DNA of 64,000 nucleotides from Thermoplasmata archaeon (GTDB lineage: Archaea; Thermoplasmatota; Thermoplasmata; Lutacidiplasmatales; UBA184), in NCBI GenBank assembly GCA_022750455.1, contig JAKIVR010000001.1, positions 26,270 through 90,269 on the forward strand. The letters are read 5' to 3'. The notes beneath the pieces are model-generated. The model was given only the letters and a program-made list of their open reading frames with translations. It was not told the origin of the DNA and made no database searches. The position numbers were made by a program, and so were the translations under genes. Below, piece after piece: positions 2,053-63,429 of the stretch (the first letter of the stretch is position 1; every line of letters begins with the position of its first letter).

Positions 2053-2180
2053 GGTCGAGCTCGATGGACCGTGGCGTTCATTAGAACACCTGGGCGGCCG
2101 ACGCCCGGCGGAGGGAGATCCCCGTCATGACCGAGCGCGTGGGCCGAGGTCTTAAGCTCCCATGGGGCTCGGCGGCTTCC

Positions 2181-3338: not shown

Positions 3339-4540
3339 GCACCCCGACCGCCCCGACCGGGACGACGGCCGCCCTGCCCGCCCCGATCGCGGCGATGCAG
3401 TACTCGCCGCTCGCCGCGTTCCACGCGGCCCACGGCGGGCACATGGTGCCGTTCGCCCGGTGGGAGATGCCGCTCTACTTCTCCGGCATCCTCGAGGAGC
3501 ACGCGGCCGTCCGCCAGCACGTGGGGCTGTTCGACGTCTCCCACATGGGGATCCTCGCCGTCGAAGGAGAACGCGCCGGCGACCTGCTTGCCCGCCGCAC
3601 GACCATCGATCCGCGCACGCTGGCCCCGGGCGGCTGCCGGTACGGGTTCTGGCTCGCGATGGACGGGAAGATCCTGGACGACCTCTTGATCACGCGACTG
3701 GACCGGGAACCCGCGGCGCTCCGGTTCCTCATGGTCCCCAACGCCGCCCGGGCCGTCCGGGTCTACGACTTGCTCCGCCAACACCGCTCCCAGGACACCA
3801 CGATCCAGATGCTGAACGGAAAGGCCGCCATCCTGGCCGTGCAGGGACCGGACTCCCGCCGACTCCTCGAATCGACGTTCGGCTGGTCGCTCGGGGCGCT
3901 GAAGTACTACACCGCGCGCCTCTTTCCGAAGCCGCCCGAGCCCGGGAACGCGGACGGGGTCCCGCAGGCGAGCATTCCCGCAGACCTCGCCCGGAACGTG
4001 TGGGTCAGCCGGACCGGCTACACGGGCGAGCTGGGGTACGAGCTGTTTGTCGATGCGGCCTCGGCCCCGGAGATCGCCGAACGGATCGTGAACGCGGGGG
4101 CACTCCCGTGTGGTCTCGGGGCGCGCGACACGCTCCGCCTCGAAAAGGGGTACCTTCTCTCCGGGCAAGATTTCCATGAGGACCGGTCGCCCCTCGAGGC
4201 CGGCCAGGACCGGTTCGTCGAGTTCGACCACGAGTTTGTCGGCCGTCCGGCCTTGGAAGCTCAGCGGACCGCCGGCATCGCCGAACGGCTCGCGGGGCTG
4301 GAAGTCGATGGGAGTTCGACGATCCCCCGTCACGGAACGCTCGTCTTGAAGGATAGACAACCGGTCGGCGTGGTGACGAGCGGAGGGATCTCCCCGACGT
4401 TGCACCACGGCCTCGCTCTGGCGTATCTCCCGCTCGCCCTCACCGCCCCGGGGACCGCTCTGACGCTGCGGATCCGCGCGGACGACGTCCCGGCGAACGT
4501 CGTACCCCTACCGTTCCTGGCCCCCCCCAAGAAGCCGTGA
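3335..4540 (+). CDS. gcvT: Aminomethyltransferase (glycine cleavage system T protein)
   Basis: MPLYFSGILEEHAAVRQHVGLFDVSHMG is the classic GcvT N-terminal motif. The ATG at 3335 overlaps the purP stop as ATGA. Confidence 0.8.
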   Translation: MSTPTAPTGTTAALPAPIAAMQYSPLAAFHAAHGGHMVPFARWEMPLYFSGILEEHAAVRQHVGLFDVSHMGILAVEGERAGDLLARRTTIDPRTLAPGGCRYGFWLAMDGKILDDLLITRLDREPAALRFLMVPNAARAVRVYDLLRQHRSQDTTIQMLNGKAAILAVQGPDSRRLLESTFGWSLGALKYYTARLFPKPPEPGNADGVPQASIPADLARNVWVSRTGYTGELGYELFVDAASAPEIAERIVNAGALPCGLGARDTLRLEKGYLLSGQDFHEDRSPLEAGQDRFVEFDHEFVGRPALEAQRTAGIAERLAGLEVDGSSTIPRHGTLVLKDRQPVGVVTSGGISPTLHHGLALAYLPLALTAPGTALTLRIRADDVPANVVPLPFLAPPKKP

Positions 4541-5448
4541 CGCGCCGACCTCCTCGCCTCGCGCCCACGCCCGTTCTCACCCAGACCGAGCTCGACCGGA
4601 TCGTGCGCGTGGCGCTTCGGGAGGACCGCGCCGACCGCGATCTGACGACCCATCTCGTCCTGCCGACCCGGCTGCAAGCTCGGGGGGTCGTGATCGCCCA
4701 GGCCCGGGGCGTCCTCTCCGGGATCCGACCCGCTACGCGCACGGCGGAGCGTCTCGGTCTCCGGGTCGAACACTCCCTCCCCGATGGGTCCGCGATCCGG
4801 TCGGGGGACCGCGTGCTCGAGGTTCGAGGGGACGCGCGCGCGATCCTCGCGGCCGAGCGGACGATGCTCAACTTTCTCATGCACCTCTCCGGGGTGGCGA
4901 CGTCGACCGCCGAGGCGGTGCGGCGGGCGGGATCGGCGCGGCGCGGCGTCCAGGTCCGGGCGACCCGCAAGACGCTGCCCGGACTGCGGGTCCTCGAGAA
5001 GCTCGCGGTCATCGACGGAGGCGGGGACCCGCACCGTCAGGACCTGGCGAGCGCCGCCCTCGTGAAGAACACCCACCTCGACCTCCTGGGCTCGTCTCGT
5101 TGGCGCGTCCTCGAGCAGGCGATCCAACAGTCGCCGGAGATCTCGTGGACCGTCGAGGTCCGGTCGGCGGCCGAGGCGCGCCGCGCCGTGGCGGCCGGTG
5201 TCCGCTCGCTGCTGTTGGACAATGCGGGACCTTCCGGGGCGAAGGCGGTGCTGCGAACGCTCCGGGACGTTCCGGCCCGTCGTCGGATCACGGTCGAGCT
5301 CTCGGGCGGAATCACCCACGACAACGTCGCCGCCCATGCTCGTACGGGCGCGAACTCCGTGAGCCTAGGAGCGATCACCCACTCGGCGCCCGCCCTTCCG
5401 TTCCACCTGGAGATCCGACGGGTGGCGCCGCGGAGAGCATCCCGTTAA
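4537..5448 (+). CDS. nadC: Nicotinate-nucleotide pyrophosphorylase (quinolinate phosphoribosyltransferase)
   Basis: Motifs AERTMLNFLMHLSGVAT, LLDNAGP and ELSGGIT. The GTG start overlaps the gcvT stop as GTGA. Confidence 0.85.
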   Translation: MTRRPPRLAPTPVLTQTELDRIVRVALREDRADRDLTTHLVLPTRLQARGVVIAQARGVLSGIRPATRTAERLGLRVEHSLPDGSAIRSGDRVLEVRGDARAILAAERTMLNFLMHLSGVATSTAEAVRRAGSARRGVQVRATRKTLPGLRVLEKLAVIDGGGDPHRQDLASAALVKNTHLDLLGSSRWRVLEQAIQQSPEISWTVEVRSAAEARRAVAAGVRSLLLDNAGPSGAKAVLRTLRDVPARRRITVELSGGITHDNVAAHARTGANSVSLGAITHSAPALPFHLEIRRVAPRRASR

Positions 5449-5450
5449 GA
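5441..5450 (+). promoter_or_regulatory. CCGTTAAG TATA-like element about 30 nt upstream of nadA, overlapping the nadC stop codon
   Basis: The sequence CCCGTTAAGAGCG contains the TAA stop of nadC and resembles the AACCGTTAAG motif found upstream of Sm-L37e and rps15. Confidence 0.35.
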
Positions 5451-5484
5451 GCGCTACCGGGCTTCTCTCGAGCGAGGGGTGGCG

Positions 5485-14085: not shown

Positions 14086-14949
14086 CTACCGGATGGTGAT
14101 CGACTCCAACTGCATCCCGCCGCCATTGACCTGGGTGGGGTTGCCGAGCACGAAGCTCGCGGTGGCGAGCGAGCCCGGCGTCGCCGGGTCCGCCGAGACC
14201 TCCGACATGAGCTCGACGACGATCTGCATTTCGTACGTCCCCTTGGGGAGGCGGAGCGTGCCGCTGACTCCCGGTGTGAGAACGACGATCTGGTGGTGGG
14301 CGCTCTCGTTCACCGTTCCGTTCTGGCTGGTGAACTCCTCGGCGATCGGATCGAGGAACCCAGGGAGGTTGAGGTGGGGGTTCGGCACGGTCGGTGCGAT
14401 GTCCCAGCTCACGGAGAGCTCGAACTCGGCCCAGGTGTTGGTGATGCCGGGCGCGCTGCTCCCTCCCGCGACCGAGAGCTTCCCGGTGTAGCTGAGCTCC
14501 CAGACCTGCTGGATCGAGTAGTTCGCCGTGTGGTCGACGGTGAAGTTCACGGTGGCGTACGAGAGCGTGACGCTCGAGCTTGCGGTGCTCGGCTGGGCGT
14601 ACGCCGCGCACCCGCGGGCCGAGTCGACCGCCGACCCGAGGAACAGGCCGGTCGCTTGGTCGAAGTACGCCGCTGCCGGTTCGCGGTAGTTCGAGCACCC
14701 CGAGAGCTGGGTGGCCCCGCCCAGGCTCGCGGTGCCGGGGAACGGCCCGGTCAAATGCAGGAGAGGGGTGGGTGCGGCGCTGACGAACGCCGCTGCGATC
14801 AGCAAGAGGCCAAAGCCGGTCGCGCCCAATGCTCCGAACCGTGTCGCGGTTCGGCGCCGACGGGCGGCGGGCTCGGGCGGGTCTTTGCACGTCGCTCGGG
14901 TCCGGGAGGTCGGGTCGGGCATCTCCAGCGGTCGCTTTTCGGTCTTCAT
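14086..14949 (-). CDS. Secreted or anchored hypothetical protein (N-terminal signal/anchor, Ser/Thr-rich, beta-rich)
   Basis: Begins MKTEKRPLEMPDPTSRTRATCKDPPEPAARRRRTATRFGALGATGFGLLLIAAAFVSAAPT (h-region), then a region rich in S/T/N with beta-strand character. A CTTGATATCC TATA-like element lies about 35 nt upstream. Confidence 0.5.
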   Translation of the reverse strand: MKTEKRPLEMPDPTSRTRATCKDPPEPAARRRRTATRFGALGATGFGLLLIAAAFVSAAPTPLLHLTGPFPGTASLGGATQLSGCSNYREPAAAYFDQATGLFLGSAVDSARGCAAYAQPSTASSSVTLSYATVNFTVDHTANYSIQQVWELSYTGKLSVAGGSSAPGITNTWAEFELSVSWDIAPTVPNPHLNLPGFLDPIAEEFTSQNGTVNESAHHQIVVLTPGVSGTLRLPKGTYEMQIVVELMSEVSADPATPGSLATASFVLGNPTQVNGGGMQLESITIR

Positions 14950-17268: not shown

Positions 17269-17484
17269 TTAGGCGTTCTTCATCTTGGCGCGGGCGATGT
17301 ATCCCTTCTTGTCGAGGAAGTACATGTAGCCGTCAGCGCGAACGATCTTTTCGCTGCCGACCTTACTCTTCCGCCCAGACTTGTTCAGCTTGGTGGGAGT
17401 CTTCCAGAGATACCCGTCCTTCCCGAGGTAGTAGAGATATCCCTTCTCCCGTGTGACCTGCTCCTTCCCGATGCGCTCTGCCAT
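17269..17484 (-). CDS. Small Lys-rich basic protein (about 71 aa) with an internal tandem aromatic repeat, encoded in a low-GC island
   Basis: MAERIGKEQVTREKGYLYYLGKDGYLWKTPTKLNKSGRKSKVGSEKIVRADGYMYFLDKKGYIARAKMKNA contains two GY-x-Y-[YF]-L-x-K-x-GY repeats. The gene has about 55% GC against about 70% around it, with AAG/AAA-rich codons. It lies directly downstream of hutI. Confidence 0.6.
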   Translation of the reverse strand: MAERIGKEQVTREKGYLYYLGKDGYLWKTPTKLNKSGRKSKVGSEKIVRADGYMYFLDKKGYIARAKMKNA

Positions 17485-17528
17485 GTGTGGCGACCTCACC
17501 GACGAGACAGAAGCCCATGTATTTGAAT

Positions 17529-18797
17529 TTACTGACGGAGTTCCGACGTGAAAACGAACTTTCCCTGACGATAAACTTCGACCGGATCGACCCCAATGCG
17601 GCCGGCGATCTCCGCGGCGTGGTGGAGGTCGAACACCGCGAGATCGGCCGGTCCACCGACGGTAATCCGCCCCGATCCGTCGGCGAGGCGGAGGGCGTGG
17701 GCCGCGTTCACCGTCGAGGCGGTGAGCGCCTCCTCGGGCGTCAACCGGGCCGAGTGCACCGCGTGGGCGATCACGAGCGGCATCGACTCGACGTACGAGT
17801 TCGGGGAGAGGTCGGTCCCGAGGGCGACGGCGACCCCGGCCCGGACGAACTCCCGACCCGGGACGGGCCGGTCGACCAGCGTGGCGAACGGCGTCAAGGG
17901 CAGGAGGACGGCGACGACGCCCGCCTTCGCGAGGCGTTGCCGGTCGGCGGCCGGCGTCTGCAGGAGGTGTTCAGCGGAGACGGCCCCGATCTCGGCCGCG
18001 AGCCGTCCGCCGCCCGAGGCGACGAACTCGTCGGCGTGGATTTTCGTGCCGAGGCCGAGCTGCTGCGCGGCTCGCAGGATCCGCCGCGCCGCCGGGACGG
18101 AGAAGAACCCCGGCTCGCAGAAGACGTCGCAGAATCGGGCGAGATGGGCGGAGGCGATGGTGGGAAGGCTGTGGCGGACGATCTCATCGACATACGCCGT
18201 GGCCCGTCCCCGGGCTTCGCGGGGCACGGCGTGCGCCCCGAGGTACGTCGGCACGATGGTCATCGGCTCGGTGGCTTGGAGCTGACGCAACAGACGCAGC
18301 AGACGGAGCTCCCCGCGGGGTTCGAGGGCGTACCCGGTCTTGATCTCGACCGTCGTCGTCCCGTGGCGGCGCAATCGGGCGAGGCGTCCTCGGGCGTCCC
18401 GGAGGAGCTGCGCGCTCGACGCCTTCCGGGTCGCTCGGACGGTGGAGAAGATGCCGCCGCCCGAGGCGGCGATCGATCGGTACGACTCCCCGCGCAGCTT
18501 GCGGCCGATCTCCCGATGCCGGTCCCCGGCGAAGAGGAGGTGGGTGTGGGCGTCGACGAATCCCGGGACGACCAGCCGGCCCTCGAGGTCGTGAGTGCGA
18601 CCGCCGCGCCGCAGCCGGACGGCGGAGCGCGCCTTCCGGGTCGGTCCGATCCAGACGATGCGCCCTCCGTCGACGGCCACGGCGGCCTCCGTCTGCAGAC
18701 CGAGCTCCGACATCGCCGGGCCGCACCGGGGCACCGGACCGCGGTCCAGGGTGGCGAGCTCGCCGATGTGGGTGAGGAGCAGGTCGGCGCGGATCAC
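17529..18797 (-). CDS. hutI: Imidazolonepropionase
   Basis: The run VPGFVDAHTHLLFAGDRHREIGRKLRGESYRSIAASGGGIFSTVRATRKAS...GTTTVEIKTGYAL...YLGAHAVP closely matches HutI conserved blocks. GTG start at VIRADLLL preceded by GGTGA. The 60-aa Gly/Pro-rich N-terminus in the track ORF is spurious. Confidence 0.8.
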   Translation of the reverse strand: MIRADLLLTHIGELATLDRGPVPRCGPAMSELGLQTEAAVAVDGGRIVWIGPTRKARSAVRLRRGGRTHDLEGRLVVPGFVDAHTHLLFAGDRHREIGRKLRGESYRSIAASGGGIFSTVRATRKASSAQLLRDARGRLARLRRHGTTTVEIKTGYALEPRGELRLLRLLRQLQATEPMTIVPTYLGAHAVPREARGRATAYVDEIVRHSLPTIASAHLARFCDVFCEPGFFSVPAARRILRAAQQLGLGTKIHADEFVASGGGRLAAEIGAVSAEHLLQTPAADRQRLAKAGVVAVLLPLTPFATLVDRPVPGREFVRAGVAVALGTDLSPNSYVESMPLVIAHAVHSARLTPEEALTASTVNAAHALRLADGSGRITVGGPADLAVFDLHHAAEIAGRIGVDPVEVYRQGKFVFTSELRQ

Positions 18798-25662: not shown

Positions 25663-27096
25663 CTAGGCCGCCTTTGTGCGCTGGTAGTACTGCTGGATGA
25701 ACTCGGGCTTGAGCCGCTTGAGCTCCGCCTCGGGAAGTTCCGACAGGATCGACCAGCCGATCGCCAAGCTCTCGTCGATGGTCCGGTCCTCGTCCGGACG
25801 CTGGCCCACGAACTCGGCCTCGAACCGGTCCGCGACCTTCAGGTAGATCCGGTCGACCTCGGAAAGGGACTCCTCGCCGACAATGGCGCTCAGCGCGCGC
25901 TGGTCCTTTCCCGTGGCGTACGCCGCGTACAGCTGATCGGCGACGCCCCGGTGGTCGTCGCGCGTCCGGCCCTTCCCGATCCCCTGGTTCATCAGACGCG
26001 AGAGCGAGGTGAGCACGTCGATCGGTGGGTAGATGCCGCGGCGTTGCAGGTCGCGGCTCGCAACGATCTGCCCTTCGGTGATGTACCCCGTCAGGTCCGG
26101 GATCGGGTGGGTGATATCGTCGGCGGGCATCGTCAGGATCGGCAACTGCGTGATCGATCCCTTGCGCCCGTGGATCTTTCCCGCGCGCTCGTACAGCGTC
26201 GCCAGGTCGGTGTACATGTACCCCGGATACCCCCGGCGTCCCGGCACCTCTTCCCGCGCGGCGGCGATCTCCCGGAGCGCCTCGCAGTAGTTCGTCATGT
26301 CCGTCAGCACCACGAGCACGTGCATGTCGCGCTCGTAGGCGAGGAACTCGGCCGTGGTCAGCGCCATCCTCGGCGTGATGATCCGCTCCATCGACGGGTC
26401 GGAGGAGAGGTTCAGGAACACGACGGTGCGCTCGAGCGCCCCGGTCGATTCGAACTCCTTGAGGAAGAAGTTCGCCTCCTCGCTCGTGATCCCCATCGCC
26501 GCGAAGATGACGGCGAAGCTCTCGGAGGAGTTTCGAAGCTTGGCCTGCCGGACGATCTGCGCCGCGATCTGGTTGTGGGGGAGTCCCGCGCCGGAGAAGA
26601 TCGGCAGCTTCTGGCCGCGCACGAGGGTGTTCATCATGTCGATGTTGGTGAGACCTGTCTGGATGAACTCCGAGGGCTCCTCGCGGGAGTACGGGTTCAT
26701 GGCGTTCCCGACGATCTCGAGCTCCTTGTCCGAGATGATCCGGGGACCGCCGTCGCGCGGTTCGCCCAGTCCGTTGAAGACGCGGCCGAGCATCGCGTCC
26801 GAGACGGCGAGGGTGGCGACCTTGCCCATGAACCGGACGGCGGTCGTCTCCACGTCCATGCCCATCGTGGGCCCGAACACCTGGACGATGGCGAGGCCTT
26901 TGCGTGAATCGAGAACCTGGCCTTGCCGTCGCTCTCCATTCGGGAGCGTGATCTCGACGATCTCCCCGTACGCCGCTCGTTCGATGTCGCGAACGAACAG
27001 GAGGGGGCCGGAGATGCGGTCGATGGTGCGGTAGTCGATCGGCATGTCCGACGAGCTGACCGCCCCGGCCGCGGCTTTCGGCTTCGTGCTCGCCAT
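25663..27096 (-). CDS. atpB: A-type ATP synthase subunit B
   Basis: [16 protein letters not shown]..., [33 protein letters not shown]. The MASTKPK start overlaps the atpA stop as ATGA. Confidence 0.9.
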
Positions 27097-29564: not shown

Positions 29565-29602
29565 GCGGGTAGCCTCGAGGAAAATCCACAGGCGTTTTGT
29601 AT

Positions 29603-32392
29603 TTAGGGTTTGGCCCGGTTGAGAGCAGAATCGGGTTCGGCGTCCCGACCGGACGGGGCCTCCGGAGCGTTCTTCGGCGCGGAGGGAGGGGTAGCGGAGC
29701 TCCGTCTATGAACCCAGATCCAGCCTCCCACGATCGCTCCGATCCCCACAACGGCTACGAACCCGAGGAGGACCCACTCCCACTCGACCAGTTGGCCGGG
29801 CGGAGTTGTCTCGGCCCTCGGCGCGCACGGCGGGGGCGCGACGTTCAAGGTCGTGGACTCGCGGACGGAGACGCCGGAGGAATCGGTCACGATCAGGAGC
29901 ACCGAGTTTGCCGAGTACGAGTACGCAACCGCCGTCACTTCCATCCCGGTCTCGGTCGTCCCGTTGGGGAGCGTCCATTGGTAGCGGTACGGCCCGATCC
30001 CGCCGGTCGCCGAACCGATCAGGTTCCACTCGGTGCTGAACGATCCGTTCGATCCGCACCCCCCGCAGTCGGAGGGCGCGCACGGTGAGGCGACGGTGAC
30101 ATAGGCGGAGAGGGGGGGCGGGGCGGCGGTGCGGAACTCTACGGAAAAGTTCTGGGCGAGGGCCGTTCCGTACTGGCTCGTCGCCTCGGTCGACAGCTCG
30201 ATCGTGTAATTGGTGGCTGGGGCGAGCGCGACGGAATGGGACCACGTCAGCTCGGGGCCCGACACAGTGGCGGCGCCCGCCACGGTCGGGGTGATCGAGA
30301 CGGCCGCGGAGGTCGAGGCGGCGTCCATCGCGAGACTGAACGTGAGGGTCACGTTCTGCCAGACCGAAACATCTTGACTCTGGTTCACCGGGTCGCTGGA
30401 GACGACGGTGGCGTTCGGAGCCGTCGTGAACTGAAATTCGAACGCGTACGGGAGAGGAATTCCGTTCGTCGTGGTTGCGGCGGTTCCGATCGAGACGGTG
30501 TAGACAGTAGCCGGCGAATAGCTGAGGTCGGACACGAGGAGGCTTGTGTTCCCCGAGGTGAAGCTAGCTCCCCAGTCACCAGGAGACGGCAAGATGTTGA
30601 GCGCCGTGAGGACACTGTCGGCGTTCATCGGCTGGCCGAATACCACGGAGATCGCCGCGTGGGTCTCCACGGGGACCAACCTCGTTCCGTTCACCGGAGC
30701 GGAGGAGAGCACCCACGGGTGCAGGAGTACGACGACCGTGACGGGCCCCGACCCCGTGACGGACGCATTCCCGAGATCCAGCTCGTCCTCTGCCACGACC
30801 GTGTAGTTCTCCAGCCAGGTAGTCGTCAGTGCGGTCACCTCGATCTGGGCCGCCACGAAGGTCACCCAGCCACTGGTGTTCGCCGTGGCGATTTGGGGAA
30901 CGCTGAGGTTGGAGGCCCCTCGGAGGGTGACGACCGCTCTGACGGCCGGCGCTCCACCCGGAACGAGGGTTTGCACACGCACCGGCTCGTCCACGTGGAT
31001 CACGCCGGAGTTCAGCGATTGATATCCCTCGCCGGGCGCGAGGGGGCTGTTGAGCAGGGTCACGGTGCCGTTGCTTGTCGCTTGGATGCCGATCGTCGCG
31101 CCCGGGAAGTTGACGTCGCGGTCCACGGAGCTGTTCTCGAGCTCGATCGAGCTCGAATCCGCCGCCGCGACCAAGTTGTAGACCGTGGTGTTCTCGACCA
31201 GGATCTTCGACGTCTCGTACGCGCCCAGGTATCCCGTGATCCCCGTGTAGTTGGAATCGTTGAGGATCACCGTGGACGACCCGTACGCCACGATCTGGGC
31301 GACGTCGCTGTCGGTCACGGCGATGTGGCTGCTGAACGGGAACCACCCCCAGCTGTAGATCGAGACGTTGTACAGGTGGAAGTCGAAGTCCGGGCTCACG
31401 AAGCTGAGGGCCGTATAGTACTGCGCCCGGAATCCTGAGAAGTTGTCGAGCGCGGTCGAGTCCTGCAGGTGGAACCCGACCTGCGCGAACGTCTGGTTGT
31501 GCAGGGTGACGTTCGCCCCGTTCCAGAGGTGCACCCCGTCCCGCCAGATCTGGTCGTTCCCGAGCTGGATGGAGTAGTTGATGCCCGTCACGTTCTGGGT
31601 CCCGGGGAAGATCCACGAGTTCACCTGGGTGAGGTGGTGATGCGCCGGCTCCACGCTCGGGAGCGTGAGGTTCGCCGTCATGCCGGCCTTGAAGTTCGGC
31701 CAGATGTTGAACGCCGAGGAGTTCACGATCCGCAGATGGGCGTTGTTCCACATGGTCGGATTGTCCCACAGCGCCACGTCGGAGAAGAGCACGGAATCGG
31801 AGACGTTCTGGGTCGCGTTGTACGCCACCAGGTCGATGAACCAGTTCCCCCGCACATTGCAAACGGTGCTGTTGGAGATCGCGCTGTTCGAGGAGCCGTA
31901 GAAGTTCCCGCTCCACTGCCACCCGTTCGACTCCACGTTCGATCGGTTGAGCGTGAACCAGCTGTGGTTCTGGAGCACGAGGCTGTACTCGTCGTCGTAC
32001 GCCTCGAGGACGTTCAGGTCCGATTGCTGGATGTCGAGCCGGGCGTTGTCGGTCAGGAGAATGTTTCCCATTACGTCCAACGTGACCGTTTGCGAGGCGT
32101 TGGAGACGAACAAGCTCGAATTCCCGGAGAGGGTGATGTCGCCGACCGTCGTGTTCGTGGAGATGTTCATCTGCGTGGAGCCCGACAGGTCAATGTCCGG
32201 GACCGCCGCGGTCGGCGCCAAGGCGTCGGGGGATGCCGCCCCGGGAAGCTCTCCGGGGCGCTCCGCCGGGGAGGCGGCCGACCCGAGAGGAACTCCGGAG
32301 CGGCTCGCCGATCCCGTGAGTCCCGGCGGGGCGATCACCAGCAGAATGAGGGCGAGCGTGATTGCGATCGGGAGGGGTGACCGGCCCATCAC
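29603..32392 (-). CDS. Large cell-surface protein: signal peptide, right-handed parallel beta-helix (PbH1-like) repeats, many N-glycosylation sequons, C-terminal TM anchor
   Basis: Begins MMGRSPLPIAITLALILLVIAPPGLTGSAS. More than 20 N-x-S/T sequons (NISTNTT, NSS, NAS, NHS, NRS, NST...). It ends in a hydrophobic anchor, VLLGFVAVVGIGAIVGGWIWVHRR. Confidence 0.7.
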   Translation of the reverse strand: MMGRSPLPIAITLALILLVIAPPGLTGSASRSGVPLGSAASPAERPGELPGAASPDALAPTAAVPDIDLSGSTQMNISTNTTVGDITLSGNSSLFVSNASQTVTLDVMGNILLTDNARLDIQQSDLNVLEAYDDEYSLVLQNHSWFTLNRSNVESNGWQWSGNFYGSSNSAISNSTVCNVRGNWFIDLVAYNATQNVSDSVLFSDVALWDNPTMWNNAHLRIVNSSAFNIWPNFKAGMTANLTLPSVEPAHHHLTQVNSWIFPGTQNVTGINYSIQLGNDQIWRDGVHLWNGANVTLHNQTFAQVGFHLQDSTALDNFSGFRAQYYTALSFVSPDFDFHLYNVSIYSWGWFPFSSHIAVTDSDVAQIVAYGSSTVILNDSNYTGITGYLGAYETSKILVENTTVYNLVAAADSSSIELENSSVDRDVNFPGATIGIQATSNGTVTLLNSPLAPGEGYQSLNSGVIHVDEPVRVQTLVPGGAPAVRAVVTLRGASNLSVPQIATANTSGWVTFVAAQIEVTALTTTWLENYTVVAEDELDLGNASVTGSGPVTVVVLLHPWVLSSAPVNGTRLVPVETHAAISVVFGQPMNADSVLTALNILPSPGDWGASFTSGNTSLLVSDLSYSPATVYTVSIGTAATTTNGIPLPYAFEFQFTTAPNATVVSSDPVNQSQDVSVWQNVTLTFSLAMDAASTSAAVSITPTVAGAATVSGPELTWSHSVALAPATNYTIELSTEATSQYGTALAQNFSVEFRTAAPPPLSAYVTVASPCAPSDCGGCGSNGSFSTEWNLIGSATGGIGPYRYQWTLPNGTTETGMEVTAVAYSYSANSVLLIVTDSSGVSVRESTTLNVAPPPCAPRAETTPPGQLVEWEWVLLGFVAVVGIGAIVGGWIWVHRRSSATPPSAPKNAPEAPSGRDAEPDSALNRAKP

Positions 32393-37348: not shown

Positions 37349-37942
37349 GTGACCGATCCTCCCTCCCGCCGTGGGCTCCCCCCGACGGCCGGCGATCGGT
37401 GGCGACGCGGGGCGTTCGATCGACCGACGGTGCGGGTCGCGCGCGAGCTGCTCGGCGCTTGGCTCGTCGTCCGCCAGGGCCAGCGCAGGCTCTCGGCCCG
37501 GATCGTGGAGACGGAGGCGTACGTCGCGCGGGACGCGGCGAGCCACACGTTCCGAGGACCGACCCGTCGCAACCGGTCCATGTTCGGGCCGCCGGGAACG
37601 CTGTACGTGTACCGCATCCATCAGGTCGTCTGCGCGAACGTGGTCACCCAGCCCGGTCAGGCCGTGTTGCTCCGCGCCGCGGAACCCGGCCCGGGTCTCC
37701 GGGGGGATACCCGAGGCCCTGGACGGCTGTGCCGCACCCTCGGGATCACGCTCCTCGATGACGGCTCCGATGTGGTCCACGGACGGGTCGAGGTGAGGAG
37801 CGGAGCCCGCCGGACCGAGCGGATCGTGGTCGGGCCCCGGGTAGGGATCTCCCGTGGGGCGCGTCGGAGACTTCGCTACGCTCTCGACGGGAACCGGTGG
37901 GTCTCGTTGCCTCGACCGAGGCGGGTGCGCCCTACCGCTTGA
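37349..37942 (+). CDS. mpg: DNA-3-methyladenine glycosylase (Mpg/AAG family)
   Basis: [18 protein letters not shown]...[41 protein letters not shown]...LLRAAEP matches the Mpg family. GTG start. Confidence 0.8.
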
Positions 37943-38327: not shown

Positions 38328-38356
38328 GGCAACGAAGGGTTCACCGGAATCCGTGG

Positions 38357-38366
38357 CTTAACGGTT
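38357..38366 (-). promoter_or_regulatory. AACCGTTAAG TATA-like element about 30 nt upstream of the Sm gene, overlapping the kinase stop codon
   Basis: The minus strand reads GAAACCGTTAAGCCACGG. The same 10-mer occurs upstream of rps15. Confidence 0.4.
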
Positions 38367-39113
38367 TCTCGGGGGGGATCCGAGCGCGCCCCTCCAGAGG
38401 AAGTCGAGCACGCGGCGCTCTTCGGAGGGACGTACCGGGGGGAGGGTGTCCGACGCGAGCCGTCGAAGAAGTCGGGTTGCCAGGACCTCCGGGGCGGGAC
38501 CCGCTCGCACGGTCCAGACGCGTCCCGGGGCGAGGCGGGGGACCGTCCGCAGCCAGAACGTCCGTTCGGTCCGTCCGATCTGGGCGTGCCGTTCCCTCCA
38601 CGCCTCGGGATGTGTCGTCGACGAGATCCGGGCGCGTTTCGTCGAGAGCGTCGGCGACGCCTTCAAGAAGACGTGGACGTCGGCGAGTCCGAGGGACCCG
38701 ACCCGACCGCGCGGCAACTGGCCCCGAACGTCCCACTCGGGTCCCCAGATCTCCCCGAGCCCCCGGACGTACGTGAGAGGTCCGAGTACCCCCGTATCCA
38801 GGATCACGGATCGTCCCGATCGCTGCCACCGTCGGGCCCGGGCGAACCGACGGGATTCCTCGCGGAGCAGATCCGCTTCCAGCCGGCGGAGCCGCGCCGG
38901 GGTCGGGATCGCCAAGGAGCGCCGGGGTCGCTGCCCCCACCACGCCTCTTCGAGCAACGGCCAACCGGTCCGCGTCGAAAGTTCCCGAGCGAGGGTGCTC
39001 TTCCCCGCGCCCGACACCCCTTCGATCGCCAGGAGCACCGGACGAGGGGGAACGGCGATCGAGGGATTCGCCCGACGGGAATCTTCGCGATCCACCGGCG
39101 TCCGCTTCTTCAA
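38358..39113 (-). CDS. P-loop nucleotide/nucleoside kinase-like protein
   Basis: Walker A LLAIEGVSGAGKSTLAREL, then DTGVLGP. 251 aa; the precise family is undetermined. Confidence 0.5.
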   Translation of the reverse strand: MKKRTPVDREDSRRANPSIAVPPRPVLLAIEGVSGAGKSTLARELSTRTGWPLLEEAWWGQRPRRSLAIPTPARLRRLEADLLREESRRFARARRWQRSGRSVILDTGVLGPLTYVRGLGEIWGPEWDVRGQLPRGRVGSLGLADVHVFLKASPTLSTKRARISSTTHPEAWRERHAQIGRTERTFWLRTVPRLAPGRVWTVRAGPAPEVLATRLLRRLASDTLPPVRPSEERRVLDFLWRGALGSPPRNR

Positions 39114-46919: not shown

Positions 46920-46942
46920 AAAGATTCGACGACCGTTGCGTA

Positions 46943-46952
46943 CTTAACGGTT
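46943..46952 (-). promoter_or_regulatory. AACCGTTAAG TATA-like element 24 nt upstream of the rps15 GTG
   Basis: The minus strand reads GAACCGTTAAGTACGCAACGG, sharing the 10-mer with the Sm-L37e upstream region. Confidence 0.4.
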
Positions 46953-47324
46953 CGCGCGCAAGGAGTTCTGACCACGTAGCAGGGCCGGCCGCGCCGCCTC
47001 TCCGGATCGGGCCGGGGACGGAACTCCGACGGAGGGAACGCCCTCCCCGCCGCTCCCGCCCAACCTACGTCTTTAAGCAACATGGCTATACCGCCGCAGG
47101 GAGGCCGTCGAGGTCCGGTGCGCCACGGAGAGTCCGACCTTCGGAACCCCAGCGTGGAAATTTCGGGAGACCGCCCGTTCCTGCGGACGATCCGGTCGCG
47201 CGCTCTGCGACGTTCCCGCTTCGCCTCGGCCCTCCGGCGTTCGGGTGCCCCGGTCCCCGTTCGATATCGTTCCGATCCGTGCGGTCCCCCGGCGATCTCG
47301 TCGACCCTCGTATGGGGGCGGATC

Positions 47325-50300
47325 CATGCACCGAGGGGATCGCGTCACGGTACGACCTGGCTGGGGGCGATCGTACTCACGCTCCTGCTGATCCTCTCCG
47401 GCCTCGCGTTCCTCGAGACAGCACCTCGCGGGGGGAGCGAGGCGAGCCCACCGGCTCCGTTCGTCCCCGCCCGCTCGATGGTGGCGACCCCCCCGAGCTC
47501 CCCCTCCGTAGCACCCATCGTCGAGCGTGCCGGCCCGACGTTTCCCTCCGCCATCGCGTGCGCGTTGGCGCCCGTTCCCGGTTGCCCGGCGCTGACCGAT
47601 CGCGCCCCCCTCGTGCCCCACCCCCTCGCCTCCGGCCCCTCGTCGTGGCTGAATCTCACACCGAACCCGTACCCCGTCTCCTACCCTTCGGCCCGGCTCG
47701 GCGCCGAAATGACGTACGATCCGGGCGACTCCCGCACGCTCCTGTTCGGCGGGCTCGGGAACGACTACGAGTTCGCGAACGACCTCTGGTCGTTCTCGGC
47801 GGGGAACTGGACGAACCTCACCGCCGCCTCCCCATGCTCCGCCACGAGCTGCCCCTCCCCCCGGGCGTACGCCGGCTTCGCCTACGACCTTCGCAACAAG
47901 GAGGCGGTCGTGTTCGGCGGCCTCGGGATCGTCGCGGGCCATCTCGCCGCGCTGGGGGACACCTGGGTCGACGCCCGCGGGGCGTGGACGAACGTCACCG
48001 CCACCGCCGGCACGCCCCCGTCGCCCCGGTTCGACGCCAGCATGAGCTACACGAGCGCTGAGGGCTACGTGGTGCTCTTCGGAGGCTCGACGATCAACAG
48101 CACGTTCCTCTCCGACACCTGGACGTTCGAGAACGGCCGGTGGTCGAACATCACGGCGAACGAGACCGACGAACCGGGAGCTCGGGCCGGCGCCGCCTTC
48201 GGTGATTCCCCGACCGGCTACGCGCTGCTGTTCGGAGGGTACGGTCCGGTCGGCTTGATCCAGCCTTCGACCGGGACGTGTGGGGAGTTCGCGCAGTACT
48301 GGTTCTCGGGCGGACAGTGGACCCATGCATCGATCTCTTGCGTGGAGTCCCCCCGCGGCCTGACCAGCGCGAACACCACCGGGGAACCGTGCGGCCGGGA
48401 AGGGGCGGCGCTGGCGTGGAGCCCGAAGAACCAGCATTTCGTCCTGTTCGGAGGGGACGGGATCGCGGGATCGGGATGCAACCCGACCGGCACCCTCGTG
48501 GCGCTGAACGATACCTACCTCTACCTCGGATCCCCCGGAGGCGCCTACGACCTCTGGCAGTCCGACATCTCGCCGGGCTGGCCCGCCGACCGGGAGGAGA
48601 TGGCGTACGCGCCCGATTACGCGGACGGCTACGTGGTCATCTTCGGGGGCACGATCGGGGGCGGCGGCCTCACCAACGAGACGTGGCGGTACTATGCCGC
48701 GGTCTCCGCTCTCTTCACCGGTCCGTTGGTGATCGAGAACAGTGCGACCAATCTCGGCTTCCCGATCTTCACCCTCACCGCGTTCGGAGGTTCCGGCAAC
48801 CTGGACTTCATCTTCAATACCACCGGGCTCCAGACCGGGAACCCACTGACGGGTTCGGCCGGCTGTTCCTTGTTCACCGACCAGGCCGGTCATCCGGCCC
48901 CAACGCAAGGCGTCGACGTGATTCGGTGCGCCCCGGCCCCCGGCGCCTACAACATCTACCGGCTCAGCGTCACCGTCTGGGACACGGAGCAGACGACGGC
49001 CCGGGCGTACGCGAACTGGACGTTCACGGCCGACCCGCCGGAGGCGCTCGACCTGTACTCCCAGTTCGCGGGGGCGTTCTACAACGGGATCTCGTTCACC
49101 GACCGATTCTCGGTCTACGCCCAGATCAACAACCAGCCGGTCACCCAGATCACGGGGTCGATTGGTCTCGGCCCCAACCTCAGCTTCTCCCACACCAGCT
49201 CGTCGGACTTCTGGTGGAACGCCTCGTACAACATGGACGAGGCCCCGGCCGGTGCCACCCTGTACGTCGTCGTCGAGAGCGACAACTGGCAGGAGAATGC
49301 GAGCCTGGCGCTCAACGTCGTCAACACCCCGTCGTTCATCACGAACTTCGTCAACGATCCGGGCGTCGTCCAGCAGGAGAAGTCGGTCGGATCCGGGCCG
49401 TTCAACGAGAACTACAGCCTCACGCAGTCGATCGCGATCTCGCTCTCCGCGTTCAGCGTCACGGTCCCGAAGAGCGTCCCGCTCCTCAGTGGCCTCTTCT
49501 CCCTGCTCCCGTCGATGACGGTGACGTTCTACGAGTCGAGCGCCGGGACCGTGATGATCTCGGGCGTCCTCGGGGAATCGCTGCCGGCGATCGACCTCGT
49601 CGGCGGCAGTCTCACGATCTCGGCGTCGCTGAACCTAAGCGGGACGCTCTCCATCACCAACTCGAACGGCGTCGAGAGCATCGACTGGGTCACCGCCAGC
49701 CTGACCGTCCAGATCAAGGGGGACTTCCAGGCGAGCATTCCGATCTACGGGTACACGTTCGACCTCTTCGGCGTGCCAGTCACCATCGGCTTCAGCCTGA
49801 CGATCGACGTCGCGCCGACCATCGCGCTGCAGATGGTGATGGCCCCGGCGAACTCCTCCGCGACGGCGATCGCCGACGGGTTCAACTTCACGATCGTCCA
49901 ACTCCTCGGGGATTTCTCGCTTCCCATCACGGCCGCCATCAACTTCGGGGTCGGGGTCGCCTCGGTCGCCGTCGGCGGCACGTTGACGTTCGACGTGGCG
50001 TTCGGGATCGCGCCCGGCCCGTTCGGTCCGACCGGATTATGGATCAACGGCACGTTGTTCGCCATGGTCCAGGTGCTCTTCTGGAGCGCCACCTGGAACT
50101 TCCTCGGACCGGCCGTCATCTACCACTCGTCGCCGGGGCAAGGGGAGGCGCCACGGTCGGAGGGGGCGCAACCGGCCACCTACGACAACGGCTCGGACGC
50201 GAGCTGGCAGCTCGATCCCCGGAGCTACAACGGGACCGGCTACGACCGCCTCCTCTGGTCCTCCCTGAACTCCTCGGGGGTCGCGATCTCCGACATCTAT

Positions 50301-53777: not shown

Positions 53778-54143
53778 TCAGGCGATCCGACCGGAGTCTT
53801 CCATGAACTTCGTCAGGAAGACCTTGCCGGCCGCCGTGATCTGGTAGCGGGTCTCGACCGTCCGCTGCCGGCCCCACGAGTAGGCGGCGTTGGTGGCCGG
53901 TTGGACCATTCCGTTCGTGACGAGCAGTCCCAGGGCGCGGGCGATCGTCACCTTCCCCTCGCTCACCGCCCAGAACTTGGCCAACCGGGTCTCCAGCTCC
54001 TTCAGCTCCATCGCCTGCTCGGCGAGCTGGCCTTCGTTGTCGTTCTCCTGACGGTTCAGGTACCGGAGGATCTCCGCGAACGTGGCGCGCCACGGGTCCT
54101 CGTCGCCGCCGGCCGGCACCTGGGGGTACGGGGCGTTCGCCAT
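53778..54143 (-). CDS. Small winged-helix DNA-binding protein (hypothetical regulator)
   Basis: MANAPYPQVP...FAEILRYLNRQENDNEGQLAEQAMELKELETRLAKFWAVSEGKVTIARALGLLVTNGMVQPATNAAYSWGRQRTVETRYQITAAGKVFLTKF has a PadR/MarR-like wHTH character. About 121 aa. Confidence 0.5.
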   Translation of the reverse strand: MANAPYPQVPAGGDEDPWRATFAEILRYLNRQENDNEGQLAEQAMELKELETRLAKFWAVSEGKVTIARALGLLVTNGMVQPATNAAYSWGRQRTVETRYQITAAGKVFLTKFMEDSGRIA

Positions 54144-54211
54144 TCTACGGCAACGAGCGTCGAAGGCGTATATGTGCACCATGCCCGAGCGGGGCGGAAC
54201 CGGCAAAGGGG

Positions 54212-54547
54212 ATGTACCCCCTCTTCCGATACCTGAGCATGGCGTGCACGTGCCGGCTGCCGGCCCGATGCAGCGTGTGCAACACGCCCATCCGGGTCCC
54301 GCTCTCGAACCTGGAGAGCTCGAGCGGAGCGGCGCTCATGCTCGACAAGTTCGCCCGCCGCGACTCGACGGCGAGCCGGGAGGGCCTTCATCGTCTCATC
54401 GAGGGGAACACCCGTTGTCCGCACTGCGGCCACACGGTGACGCACTTGCACTCGCGCAGCTGCGTCGCGGCGTACCTCGCCCAGATCGGGGTGCCCCCGA
54501 ACGAGGCCGCCCAGCTCCTGCAGCGCACCACGTTCCCTGAGGGGTAG
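54212..54547 (+). CDS. Cys-rich small protein (putative zinc finger) immediately upstream of trpS
   Basis: Seven Cys arranged as ACTCRLPARCSVC...CPHCGHTVTHLHSRSC. The TAG stop lies 6 nt before the trpS GTG. The start may instead be at M10. Confidence 0.4.
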   Translation: MYPLFRYLSMACTCRLPARCSVCNTPIRVPLSNLESSSGAALMLDKFARRDSTASREGLHRLIEGNTRCPHCGHTVTHLHSRSCVAAYLAQIGVPPNEAAQLLQRTTFPEG

Positions 54548-56146: not shown

Positions 56147-56366
56147 GGGTCGGCTTCGTCGGGCGTGAGCTACCGGCTCACGGGTCGACGGCAAAATGGG
56201 GAACTATTATGTACCCCGGTTTCCGTGACCCGAACAAGGAATCCCAGACCCGCCCCCTTCGAGCTGCCCCCGCCAACAGTTGTTGACGAGTTTTGTTCGA
56301 TTCGTGCACAGGTCGAACGATTCCCCGCGAAACAACGCAAAACCGACCAACAGAGAGAAAACGACC

Positions 56367-56918
56367 ATGGTAGACAAACCCCTGACCAAACTGCGCGACC
56401 TAACGCCGAGCTCGAAACAAGTGAACGTCCACGCGAAGGTGGTGAACGTTGGAGAAGGTAAGGAAGTGATGGGAAAGTACGGTGACCCGCGAAAGGTCGC
56501 TGAGGCGATCATCGCCGACGACACCGCCCAGATCATCCTGTCGCTCTGGAACGAACAGATCGGACAGATCGCGAAGGACGATGTCATCCTGATCGACAAC
56601 GGATACGTCTCCCTCGTCCGCGGACACATGCGACTCAACGTGGGCCGGTACGGCTCCATGGCCAAGTCGCCTGACCCGATCGCCGAGGTCAACTCGACGC
56701 TGGACATGAGCCAGCAAGAGTTTGAGTCCGAGCGCCGCTCCTTCGGAGGCGGCGGTGGCGGCGGCGGCTACCGCGGCGGAGGCCGGGGTGGCGGCGGCGG
56801 CGGCTACGGCGGCGGTGGTGGCGGTGGCGGCTATGGTGGCGGCAACCGCGACGGTGGCGGCAGTGGTGGGGGCGGCGGCGGCGGAAGCCGCGAGCGCTCC
56901 GACTACAAGCGCTACTAA
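56367..56918 (+). CDS. ssb: Single-OB-fold ssDNA-binding protein (crenarchaeal-type SSB) with a Gly-rich RGG/YGG C-terminal tail
   Basis: The OB domain VNVHAKVVNVGEGKEVMGKYGDPRKVAEAIIADDTAQIILSLWNEQIGQIAKDDVILIDNGYVSLVRGHMRLNVGRYGSM follows the Sulfolobus SSB pattern. The tail is GGGGGGGYRGGGRGGGGGGYGGGGGGGGYGGGNRDGGGSGGGGGGGS. The start is an ATG 29 codons into the track ORF. Confidence 0.7.
   Translation: MVDKPLTKLRDLTPSSKQVNVHAKVVNVGEGKEVMGKYGDPRKVAEAIIADDTAQIILSLWNEQIGQIAKDDVILIDNGYVSLVRGHMRLNVGRYGSMAKSPDPIAEVNSTLDMSQQEFESERRSFGGGGGGGGYRGGGRGGGGGGYGGGGGGGGYGGGNRDGGGSGGGGGGGSRERSDYKRY
56751..56890 (+). repeat. Low-complexity GGC/GGT repeat tract encoding the Gly-rich SSB tail
   Basis: ggcggcggtggcggcggc... 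repeated. Confidence 0.7.
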
Positions 56919-60307: not shown

Positions 60308-61527
60308 GCTGCCCTCCGTCGGAGCTTGGCGGCGAATTCGTCGAACACGAAACCGGCCTCTTGCGGACCGGGGTGGCCTTCCGGGTGTCCCTGCAGCGCG
60401 ATCGTGCGGCCTCCCGAATCGCGGAGCGCTTCCACCGTACCGTCATCCGGATTGACCGCCCACGGTTTCAGATCGGTCCGCTTGAGCGACTTCGGATCGA
60501 CCGCGTAGCCGTGATTCTCGCTCGCGATCAGCGCCGTGCGGTCGGTGAAGACGACGGTCTTGTTCTGCCCGCGGTGTCCGTACTTCATCTTGTACGTCTT
60601 CCCGCCGCGGGACAAGGCGAGGAGCTGCTGTCCGAGGCAGATCCCGAGCGTTGGCAGGGCCCGGCGCCGGGCGTCGCGCAGCGCTTCGATCGCCGCTCCG
60701 AGCTCCGCCGGATCGCCCGGTCCGTTCCCCACCAGGAGCCCCGCCACGCGGCGCCCCTCCCACTTCTCGGGGATCTCCGCGTCGAACGGTAACCGGAGGA
60801 CGGCGATCTTCCGGGTCAGCAGGGATCGAATGATGCTCGTCTTCACCCCGCAGTCGGGGAGCGCGACGAGCGGGTCCCGGCGCGCCCCGTACACGTGCGC
60901 GACCTTCGGGGAGACCTGCGCCATGTAGTCCTCATCGGCGTATTTCGGGGCCGTGCGCAGCAGGGCGCGGAGGGCGCCGGTCGTGGGACGCTCCTCGCCG
61001 GGCTCCGAGACGGCGAGTACCCCTCGAACGACCCCTTCGGCCCGGAGATGCTCGGTCAGGCGCCTCGTGTCGATCCCGACCACGCCCGGGACGTGACTCT
61101 CGGTCAGCCACGTGTCGAGGCTCTCGTGACTCTTCCAATGATTCGCCGAGGTCACCCCTCGGACCACGAGCCCCCGGACCTGGATCTCCTCCGATTCCAG
61201 GAACGTCGGGAGGCCGTACCGGTCGCGGGCGGCGGGGGACGGGACCCCGTAGTTCCCGAGCAACGGGTAGGTGAACGTCAGGATCTGGCCGCGGAACGAC
61301 GGGTCCGTTAGCGATTCCGGGTACCCGACCATGCCGGTGGTGAAGACCACCTCGCCGACCCGGGTCGTCCCGGCGCCGATCCCCCGACCTTCCCAACGGC
61401 TCCCGTCTTCAAGAAAAAGAGTCCCCCATCGGGCGGGAGATTTCGGGTCTTCGCGAGGCAACGTAGACGACCCGAAAGCGCGCACAATGCGACCTCGGCT
61501 TAACGCTTGCCTCGGGATTTCTGTCAA
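60304..61527 (-). CDS. carA: Carbamoyl-phosphate synthase small subunit (glutamine amidotransferase)
   Basis: LFLEDGSRWEGRGIGAG... and the GATase catalytic LGICLGQQLL. It overlaps the carB start by 4 nt; the first ~30 aa may be an extension. Confidence 0.85.
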   Translation of the reverse strand: MTEIPRQALSRGRIVRAFGSSTLPREDPKSPARWGTLFLEDGSRWEGRGIGAGTTRVGEVVFTTGMVGYPESLTDPSFRGQILTFTYPLLGNYGVPSPAARDRYGLPTFLESEEIQVRGLVVRGVTSANHWKSHESLDTWLTESHVPGVVGIDTRRLTEHLRAEGVVRGVLAVSEPGEERPTTGALRALLRTAPKYADEDYMAQVSPKVAHVYGARRDPLVALPDCGVKTSIIRSLLTRKIAVLRLPFDAEIPEKWEGRRVAGLLVGNGPGDPAELGAAIEALRDARRRALPTLGICLGQQLLALSRGGKTYKMKYGHRGQNKTVVFTDRTALIASENHGYAVDPKSLKRTDLKPWAVNPDDGTVEALRDSGGRTIALQGHPEGHPGPQEAGFVFDEFAAKLRRRAA

Positions 61528-62614: not shown

Positions 62615-63342
62615 CGCGAGCCGACCATCGGGGCGGCCACGCCGAGGTGGCGCGCGACCTCCGCGAGGTCCCGTGCGATCGCGTTGGCCCCCGCGGCCCG
62701 GAACCGTTCGACCTCGGTGCCGAGGACGCTCGGCGTCTCGGTGAGGACTCCGTAGAACCGGACGCCCGCGGCGCTCGCACACTGCGCGTCCATCGGATGA
62801 TCCCCCACGTACGCCGCCCGGTGCGGTTGGACCCCAAGGGCCCGGAGCACGCGCCGCATCGATTCGGGATCCGGCTTCACCGGCCCGACGTCGGTCCGAG
62901 TGCCCATCGCCTCGATGTACGGGAGGAGGTGCGCGTTCTGGAGCGCCTGGCGCGCGTACACGGCGGACGAGCGGGTCAAGAGGCCGATCCGGAAACCCCG
63001 TTCCTTCAGCGCCTGGAGGAGCTCCAAGGCGCCGGCGCGCGCTCGCGTCTGGGGCAGCGTCGCCAGCTCCATCTCGTCGAGGCGCTGGTTGACGGCCGCC
63101 TCGAACCGGTACCGGTCGGTCGCCGGCCGTCCCAGCCGATCCATCGATCCCCCGGCATCCTTGAGGAGACCGGCGATCGTGCGATGGAGATCGAGATCGC
63201 TCGGTGGCACCCCGTACGACATCGCGATCTTCGCGACCTCCCGGCGCATCTCTCCGTACGGGTGGGGGCTGAGGACGAGGGTCCCGTCCAGGTCGAAGAT
63301 CACCCCGAGGAGCGGGTCATGGTACTTCGGGTCCACAGGCAC
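62611..63342 (-). CDS. HAD-superfamily hydrolase
   Basis: VIFDLDGTLV (HAD motif I), then LLTRS, then ...YVGDHPMDAQCASAAGV (motif IV). GTG start with an AATCTTTAACGG TATA-like element about 30 nt upstream. Confidence 0.65.
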   Translation of the reverse strand: MPVDPKYHDPLLGVIFDLDGTLVLSPHPYGEMRREVAKIAMSYGVPPSDLDLHRTIAGLLKDAGGSMDRLGRPATDRYRFEAAVNQRLDEMELATLPQTRARAGALELLQALKERGFRIGLLTRSSAVYARQALQNAHLLPYIEAMGTRTDVGPVKPDPESMRRVLRALGVQPHRAAYVGDHPMDAQCASAAGVRFYGVLTETPSVLGTEVERFRAAGANAIARDLAEVARHLGVAAPMVGSR

Positions 63343-63429
63343 CCTACGGGCACCGGGCGACCTTCCGCCCGTTAAAGATTCGTGCGGAGTGGAATCCCGG
63401 TCGCCACCCCCGGTCCGGGCGAAGTTCTC

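Follow-up and report, generated by a model that had tools for sequence, protein, structure and literature searches.

A recurrent TTAAG-containing element as a probable core promoter in a GC-rich, uncultured Thermoplasmata lineage

The motif and the genes that it precedes

The window analysed here is a stretch of 64,000 nt from a Thermoplasmata archaeon (assembly GCA_022750455.1, contig JAKIVR010000001.1, positions 26,270 to 90,269 of the forward strand), and the element under study is a short AT-containing motif, CCGTTAAG, of which the window holds exactly three copies, at 5442-5449 (+), 38357-38364 (-) and 46943-46950 (-). They lie 28-40 nt ahead of nadA, the Sm-L37e gene pair and rps15, respectively, and these gene names, like those of the adjoining nadC and P-loop kinase genes, were borne out by Pfam. 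The GC content is about 69 % across the whole window and the coding share is 91 %. Relatives of its proteins are found only in uncultured Thermoplasmata genomes; cultured Thermoplasmatales are far less GC-rich than the present lineage.

The initial annotation had reported the motif in three copies at these sites, and for the 8-mer this was confirmed. The exact 10-mer AACCGTTAAG is present in two copies, one at 38357-38366 (-) and one at 46943-46952 (-). Site 1 (nadA) reads TCCCGTTAAG; an additional copy with one mismatch, AAGCGTTAAG at 61499-61508 (-) ahead of carA, had been missed. The statement that the TAA stops of nadC and of the kinase lie inside the motif was correct, as detailed below.

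At the first site, nadC (4537-5448, +) is followed by nadA, and its TAA stop (5446-5448) falls within the nadA promoter box TCCCGTTAAGAG (5440..5451, +), of which GTTAAGAG (5444-5451) is the proposed 8-bp TATA box. ATG 5485 is the most likely start codon of nadA, because the N-terminal MSLEA is conserved among the orthologues. The upstream box proposed earlier for nadA was thus retained, but not its spacing of 30 nt, as the nadC TAA stands 36 nt ahead of this ATG. With the start at 5485 there is therefore space for a short leader carrying the Shine-Dalgarno (SD)-like GAGGGGTG.

The Sm-L37e promoter, GAAACCGTTAAGCC (38355..38368, -), consists of an AA at 38366-38365, in the position of the transcription factor B (TFB)-recognition element (BRE), and a putative TATA box GTTAAGCC at 38362-38355, inside which the upstream P-loop kinase gene ends with TAA (38360-38358, -). 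Sm (38327-38115, -), downstream of the kinase, starts at ATG 38327, and L37e (38096-37932, -) follows 18 nt behind it with GGGAG ahead of its start. L37e converges with an open reading frame (ORF) on the plus strand (37430-37942), so that the 3' ends overlap by 11 nt (37932-37942). The third site, the rps15 promoter CGAACCGTTAAGTA (46941..46954, -), has the AA at 46952-46951 and the putative TATA box GTTAAGTA at 46948-46941, ahead of GTG 46919. The gene itself (46919-46464, -) is the first of an operon that continues with a RecJ-like gene and gyrA.

Conservation and placement of the box

When reference genomes were scanned with the RecJ-like protein, 37 syntenic loci were obtained. Full-length matches at 54-63 % identity were found in 36 Thermoplasmata metagenome-assembled genomes (MAGs), one of which bears the name Candidatus Lutacidiplasmatales, and the 37th locus (L036), which is cut off, matched at 79 % over 114 residues. 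Five close nadC-nadA loci came from scanning metagenomes with nadA. Distinct orthologous promoters of rps15 (n = 31) and Sm (n = 23) from about 35 Thermoplasmata genomes were compared, and genes were called with a codon-usage model in the window and 42 related loci (140 families; 699 kb of related DNA).

The rps15 promoters share the consensus AACCGTTAAGTA, with the first T 28-32 nt ahead of the start codon. An AA 4-5 nt before the first T, as expected for a BRE, was seen in 24-26 of the 31 promoters (A at -5 in 24, A at -4 in 26). The next three columns, C, C and G, are kept in 20, 23 and 22, followed by TT in all 31, A in 31, A in 28, G(+4) in 27, T in 29 and A in 30. The Sm promoters give AACCGTTAAG(A)(A/G), with the box 31-40 nt ahead of ATG; here A at -5 is found in 20, A at -4 in 22, TT in 23, the A after TT in 23 and G(+4) in 16 of the 23. 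The core columns are 87-100 % conserved and the columns outside the block are close to background in their composition. Each of the five nadA orthologues has GTTAAG, TTTAAG or TTTTAG at 34-36 nt from a conserved start, ATGTC(G/T)CT(C/G)GA(G/A)GC(G/C). The proteins encoded at the compared loci share only 55-80 % identity, a divergence at which intergenic DNA free of constraint would have been randomised. The motif has been conserved nevertheless and is therefore under selection.

Copy number was less informative. The 8-mer CCGTTAAG is present three times against about 0.5-0.6 expected, and one of 100 shuffles reached three; however, 219 other 8-mers of the window have at least three copies at an equally low expectation. 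We therefore dropped the count-based significance of the 8-mer, which is uninformative once its post-hoc choice is allowed for. Two copies of the 10-mer were reached in none of the 100 shuffles. TTAAG is not over-represented in the window (seven copies, 9.9 expected), and all seven hits, at six places, are outside gene interiors. Four lie 28-34 nt ahead of the start codons of the purP-like gene (2181), nadA, Sm and rps15, the fifth place is before carA, and the sixth is in the spacer before a Kelch-repeat ORF. This avoidance of gene interiors is partly trivial, because GC-rich third codon positions nearly bar an in-frame TTAAG; thus, position within non-coding DNA and conservation are the stronger tests. 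Among the 151 TTAAG copies in the 699 kb, 128 fall in non-coding DNA or at the edges of genes. Called starts have 82 copies in the 100 nt upstream of them, and 62 of these copies begin at -40..-26. The same upstream peak was obtained with TTAA, TTTA and TAAA. It is placement and conservation, not count, that decisively set the motif apart from chance. The initial annotation had held that a comparable frequency at random positions would speak against a promoter. Judged by copy number the 8-mer is indeed unremarkable, but its placement is not random.

Boxes of the TTAAG or TTAA(A) type stand ahead of rps15, Sm, nadA, the purP-like gene, carA, a HAD-hydrolase gene, an M29-like peptidase gene and unannotated families. 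TTAA(G) boxes are conserved ahead of families unrelated to translation, namely the M29-like peptidase, the TTAAATAG family, the small GTTTAAGTAG family, nadA and purP-like. Other genes in the window have TAAATAC, TTATATA, ATATAC or CTAATAA at an equal distance, and the tRNA-synthetase operon in the window has a different box. A family-weighted matrix (39 families) reads TTAAATA(C/G), with the start of the box peaking at -34..-28 and A enriched at -5/-4 (0.32 and 0.27 versus a background of 0.15). SD-like motifs accompany 10 % of the starts with a box at -37..-27, compared to 50 % of the co-directional starts with a gap of <18 nt, which suggests that most first genes of this group are leaderless. 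The motif is that of a general core promoter and not of a translation regulon or a special element of translation-related genes, since the same type of box also stands before purP-like, carA, nadA and the M29-like peptidase gene.

Four further places in the window were characterized individually. The putative HAD-hydrolase promoter AATCTTTAACGG (63369..63380, -) has the layout AA-N3-TTAA. A related box had already been noted for this gene and was found on the minus strand, but 33-34 nt ahead of GTG 63342 and not at the proposed 31 nt. A plus-strand reading of the same site (CCGTTAAA, with the stop of ORF 62365-63375) was rejected, as this ORF runs antisense to HAD and gave no match in Pfam. 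In the purP-like (DUF1246/DUF1297) box, GGTCTTAAGCTC (2147..2158, +), the first T is 29 nt upstream of ATG 2181, and the box is also present in the one orthologue compared (fam30, 2/2). The carA box AAGCGTTAAGCC (61497..61508, -) is one base off the 10-mer; the likely, although uncertain, start is TTG 61461, 42 nt past the first T. The TTAAG in the divergent spacer between rps15 and the Kelch-repeat ORF (47073..47077, +) is just 9 nt ahead of ATG 47082. It is a possible Kelch-repeat promoter if the start lies further downstream, e.g. at GTG 47118 behind GGAGG. In this ORF (1,400-1,500 residues), GGAGG at 47100-47104 is followed by the in-frame GTG 47118.

Upstream stop codons within the box

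TAA is the rarest stop codon overall (15 %). Among co-directional pairs, 24 of 32 with a gap of 25-38 nt end the upstream gene with TAA, compared to roughly 10 % elsewhere; by gap class, the share is 7 of 21 (a third) at 18-24 nt and about 5-15 % in the others. The association was also found at the family level (6/11 at gaps of 25-38 nt versus 9/117; p = 3e-4) and in the window taken on its own (4/8 at gaps of 18-45 nt versus 5/48; p = 0.017). Four genes in the window make up these TAA cases: nadC, the kinase gene, one gene that ends at 17529 and another that ends at 29603. In the third case, the upstream stop TAA (17531-17529) opens the AT-rich box TAAATTCAAATACAT (17517..17531, -) of a small gene (17269-17484), and in the fourth, TAA (29605-29603) lies inside the box AACCCTAAATAC (29599..29610, -; AA-N3-T(T/A)AA) of a ferredoxin-like gene that starts at ATG 29564.

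The overlap recurs in orthologues, and the box is kept with or without it. The nadC stop is inside the box in four of five orthologous nadC-nadA junctions; in the fifth (L041), nadC ends at a TGA ahead of the box and the box is kept. Past a conserved PFHL, the nadC tails differ in both length and sequence. In 10 of 21 loci the kinase gene ends with the TAA of the box. In six or seven other loci the kinase frame crosses the Sm box and ends at an ATGA on the Sm start codon, again with the box kept, and in L028, where the kinase is not a neighbour of Sm, the box is still present. The retention of the box both with and without a role as a stop, together with the variable nadC tails, suggests that it is conserved for the downstream gene. 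Stop-codon context as the cause of conservation was rejected for the same reason, the box being kept when it is not the stop.

The kinase-Sm pair thus takes two forms among the relatives, one with the stop in the TATA box and one with a start/stop overlap of 4 nt. In L003, L015, L027, L029, L031 and L037, the kinase appears to cross the Sm box in another frame and to run to the TGA of ATGA.

An upstream frame on the same strand would meet few stops in the GC-rich DNA and continue as far as the AT-rich box, which provides an in-frame TAA. The overlap is probably a by-product, a passive capture of the first available stop, rather than designed compaction. The initial annotation had seen compact internal promoters in the embedded stops. 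The compact arrangement is real and the embedding is supported by the enrichment of TAA and its recurrence in orthologues, but its origin looks passive. In a stronger version, the box would systematically set the end of the upstream gene (three quarters of the pairs at gaps of 25-38 nt) and the near-invariant AA-CCG-TTAAG would form a distinct, strong housekeeping promoter class read by a particular TFB/TBP variant (TBP, TATA-binding protein) in place of the generic pair. We regard this version as rather unlikely.

Proposed core promoter anatomy, alternative explanations and significance

We consider it very probable that the repeated AACCGTTAAG is the BRE + TATA core promoter of GC-rich Thermoplasmata, situated about 30 nt before leaderless or short-leader genes. 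The TATA box suggested by the initial annotation agrees well with the fixed position, the conservation among orthologues with randomised flanks, the AA at the BRE site and the difference in SD-like motifs (10 % versus 50 %). AACCGTTAAG would span the junction of BRE and TATA box. When GTTAAGTA was aligned to the TATA box of Methanocaldococcus jannaschii, the conserved A's came to lie at -35/-34 in Methanocaldococcus numbering; the AA would then be the conserved 3' part of the BRE, contacted by TFB, and CC(G) a weakly constrained spacer between BRE and TATA box. (G)TTAAG(T/A)A would be the version of the 8-bp TATA box in this lineage, presumably bound by TBP, and transcription by RNA polymerase would begin some 23 nt beyond it.

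Start sites were estimated with the 23 +/- 2 nt rule of PMC2699501. For rps15, purP-like and HAD, the predicted starts are on or beside the start codons (GTG 46919, ATG 2181 and GTG 63342, respectively), so that these transcripts would have no leader. Those of Sm and nadA are predicted a few nucleotides ahead: at ~38333-38329 for Sm, with a leader of ~2-6 nt before ATG 38327, and at ~5473-5477 for nadA, where a leader of ~8-12 nt before ATG 5485 would include part of GAGGGGTG. The three copies of the motif would be alike as well-expressed housekeeping promoters near the consensus and not as members of a regulon.

Several points weigh against this reading. GTTAAGTA is a poor match to the textbook TWTATATA (5/8 positions). 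The CCG that separates AA from TT is shared by 65-78 % of the orthologues, above the expectation for a free spacer, and two families, rps15 and Sm, make up most of the exact 10-mer class; we read this dominance as strong promoters near consensus, but a factor specific to the rps15/Sm promoter class is an alternative that would also account for it. Initiation downstream of the boxes is deduced only from their position. The 37 loci represent one syntenic region, in which about 40 independent promoter families were sampled, and the starts beyond the orthologue-supported cases come from a simple gene caller of our own.

The proposed element has clear counterparts in other archaea. In M. jannaschii, the TATA box has 8 nt (TWTATATA), the BRE comprises nine positions upstream with -34 highly conserved, and the box's 3' edge is separated from the start site by 23 +/- 2 nt in 94 % of the promoters (PMC2699501). 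Both lineages have an 8-bp AT-containing box about 30 nt ahead of the start point (a predicted one in the present lineage), an A-rich position that is conserved 3-4 nt further upstream (-34 in M. jannaschii), boxes before genes of all functions, and a distance from the 3' edge of the box to the start (here a predicted one) within 23 +/- 2 nt. They differ in the box, (G)TTAAG(T/A)A or TTAAATA versus TWTATATA, in the GC content (69 % versus 31 %), and in that the starts were mapped there and estimated from start codons here. In Haloarchaea, differential RNA sequencing of Haloferax volcanii gave a BRE of CGAAA, a TATA core of TTWT and 72 % leaderless transcripts (PMC4983044). High GC, short TATA cores and mostly leaderless first genes are common to both groups; the CGAAA-type BRE resembles the CGAAC before rps15 (CGAAC-CG-TTAAGT), and GUG-started leaderless genes have their likely counterparts in rps15 and HAD. 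The present lineage belongs to the Thermoplasmata, its core is TTAA(G/A) instead of TTWT, and its starts are predicted while those of the Haloarchaea are experimental.

In the GeneMarkS-2 work, all 11 Thermoplasmata genomes examined fall into 'group D', in which leaderless genes have a promoter box about 26 nt ahead of their starts (PMC6028130). The genome-wide signal is the same here, a fixed-distance box at first-in-operon starts and ribosome-binding sites at internal genes; the TTAAG flavour and the overlap with stop codons go beyond that description as far as it was available, and the present lineage is uncultured. Promoters within operons or overlapping the upstream coding sequence are established in archaea, as described for Halobacterium salinarum (PMC2710873). 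As there, the proposed promoter overlaps the 3' end of a co-directional upstream gene at nadC-nadA and kinase-Sm, so that separate downstream transcription is possible. The internal promoters of H. salinarum were identified by chromatin immunoprecipitation on chip, tiling arrays and green fluorescent protein fusions, whereas those proposed here are predicted, and a regular use of the TAA of the box as the upstream stop is not part of that account in the portion available. The element is thus of a known kind, to which the TTAAG(T/A)A flavour of this lineage is a minor addition.

One alternative is that a sequence-specific regulator of translation-related genes (rps15, Sm-L37e and others) uses the 10-mer as its operator, which would overlap or replace the TATA box. 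The exact form AACCGTTAAG is indeed found mainly before rps15 and Sm across genomes, the CCG spacer is conserved above background, and the rps15 copy in the window is part of a perfect 6-bp dyad, ACCGTT-N8-AACGGT (46929-46952, -). Inverted repeats at these promoters are, however, no longer than in shuffled sequences (mean arm 4.45 versus 4.51 for rps15, n = 33; 4.26 versus 4.45 for Sm, n = 23), and dyad symmetry was rejected because this dyad is neither conserved nor above the shuffles. Close variants ahead of nadA, carA, purP-like and the peptidase gene, a fixed distance to the start typical of a basal element, and the different box of the tRNA-synthetase operon also speak against an operator, and across the ~40 promoter families the box was not restricted to a coherent gene set, since genes of NAD, purine and pyrimidine/arginine biosynthesis have it too. 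We consider a regulon operator improbable. Other dyads surround the rps15 box in some relatives (8 bp in L003; 6 bp in L006, L037 and L036), and this class is not above shuffled controls.

Conservation could also reflect the 3' end of the upstream gene (stop context, terminator or RNA-processing site) and not the downstream promoter, given that two of the three copies in the window hold an upstream TAA and that the overlap recurs in orthologues. Against this, the boxes of rps15, purP-like, carA and HAD have no co-directional gene ending inside them, and the box is retained where nadC stops earlier (L041) and in the six or seven loci with kinase read-through. Its distance is fixed to the downstream start and not to the upstream C-terminus, as the variable nadC tails past PFHL illustrate, and it has no T-run of the archaeal-terminator kind and no Rfam match. 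A scan of the whole window at the Rfam gathering threshold returned no matches, so a structured or cis-regulatory RNA is unsupported, and we regard a 3'-end signal as very improbable. Least credible of all is a mere coincidence among AT-containing words in a GC-rich genome, with no common function behind the three copies. The counts taken alone would allow it (three 8-mers versus ~0.5 expected, a level equalled by 219 other 8-mers, and TTAAG below expectation at 7 versus 9.9), but it is refuted by conservation at a fixed position across genomes and by clustering before starts. The core promoter therefore remains our preferred explanation.

We also noted other features of the window. In the region 53778-54212, a divergent spacer of 68 nt contains a single ATATAC/GTATAT box at ~54167-54177, which lies 24-32 nt ahead of the minus-strand gene 53778-54143 and 36-44 nt ahead of the plus-strand gene 54212-54547; the latter precedes a class I W/Y-type aminoacyl-tRNA synthetase gene. 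This single quasi-symmetric TATA box may serve both directions. The spacer 56205-56366, before a single-stranded DNA-binding protein (SSB)-like OB-fold gene (56367-56918, +), contains blocks conserved in about 25 related loci, e.g. L004:6092-6229 (-). These are GGAATCC, TCGAGCG, CCGTC and TTTTGACGAGTG, with a purine-rich AACGCGAAACGCGAAAGA directly 5' of ATG, and a TATA-like CTATTATGTA is found at 56205-56214. Unlike most first genes, which look leaderless, this gene may have a conserved leader of ~130 nt, or the spacer may hold a set of regulator sites. RNAalifold gave no consensus structure for the spacer and Rfam only a chance-level hit. Finally, CGTACGCC occurs 24 times in the window, with about three copies expected (e.g. 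14596-14605, 25915-25924 and 47864-47873), sometimes as the palindrome GGCGTACGCC. It was rejected as a dispersed element, as frame analysis placed it in an Ala-Tyr-Ala-type (Tyr-codon) context, i.e. a codon-usage effect. GTAC occurs 273 times versus 87 expected.

These results leave the understanding of archaeal transcription unchanged; their useful products are a promoter model and a quantified TAA-in-TATA regularity. For uncultured GC-rich soil and sediment Thermoplasmata, the model is AA, 3 nt, then TTAA(G/A)(T/A)A, in which the first T stands 28-36 nt ahead of the start codon. It aids the calling of start codons and operons in MAGs, as for nadA (ATG 5485), HAD (GTG 63342) and carA (near 61461). 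The stop-in-box arrangement could mislead the annotation of gene ends and of apparent operons. In very GC-rich genomes such as these, the TATA box doubles as a stop-codon reservoir for the upstream gene, which would account for the variation of the C-terminal tails in nadC and the kinase.

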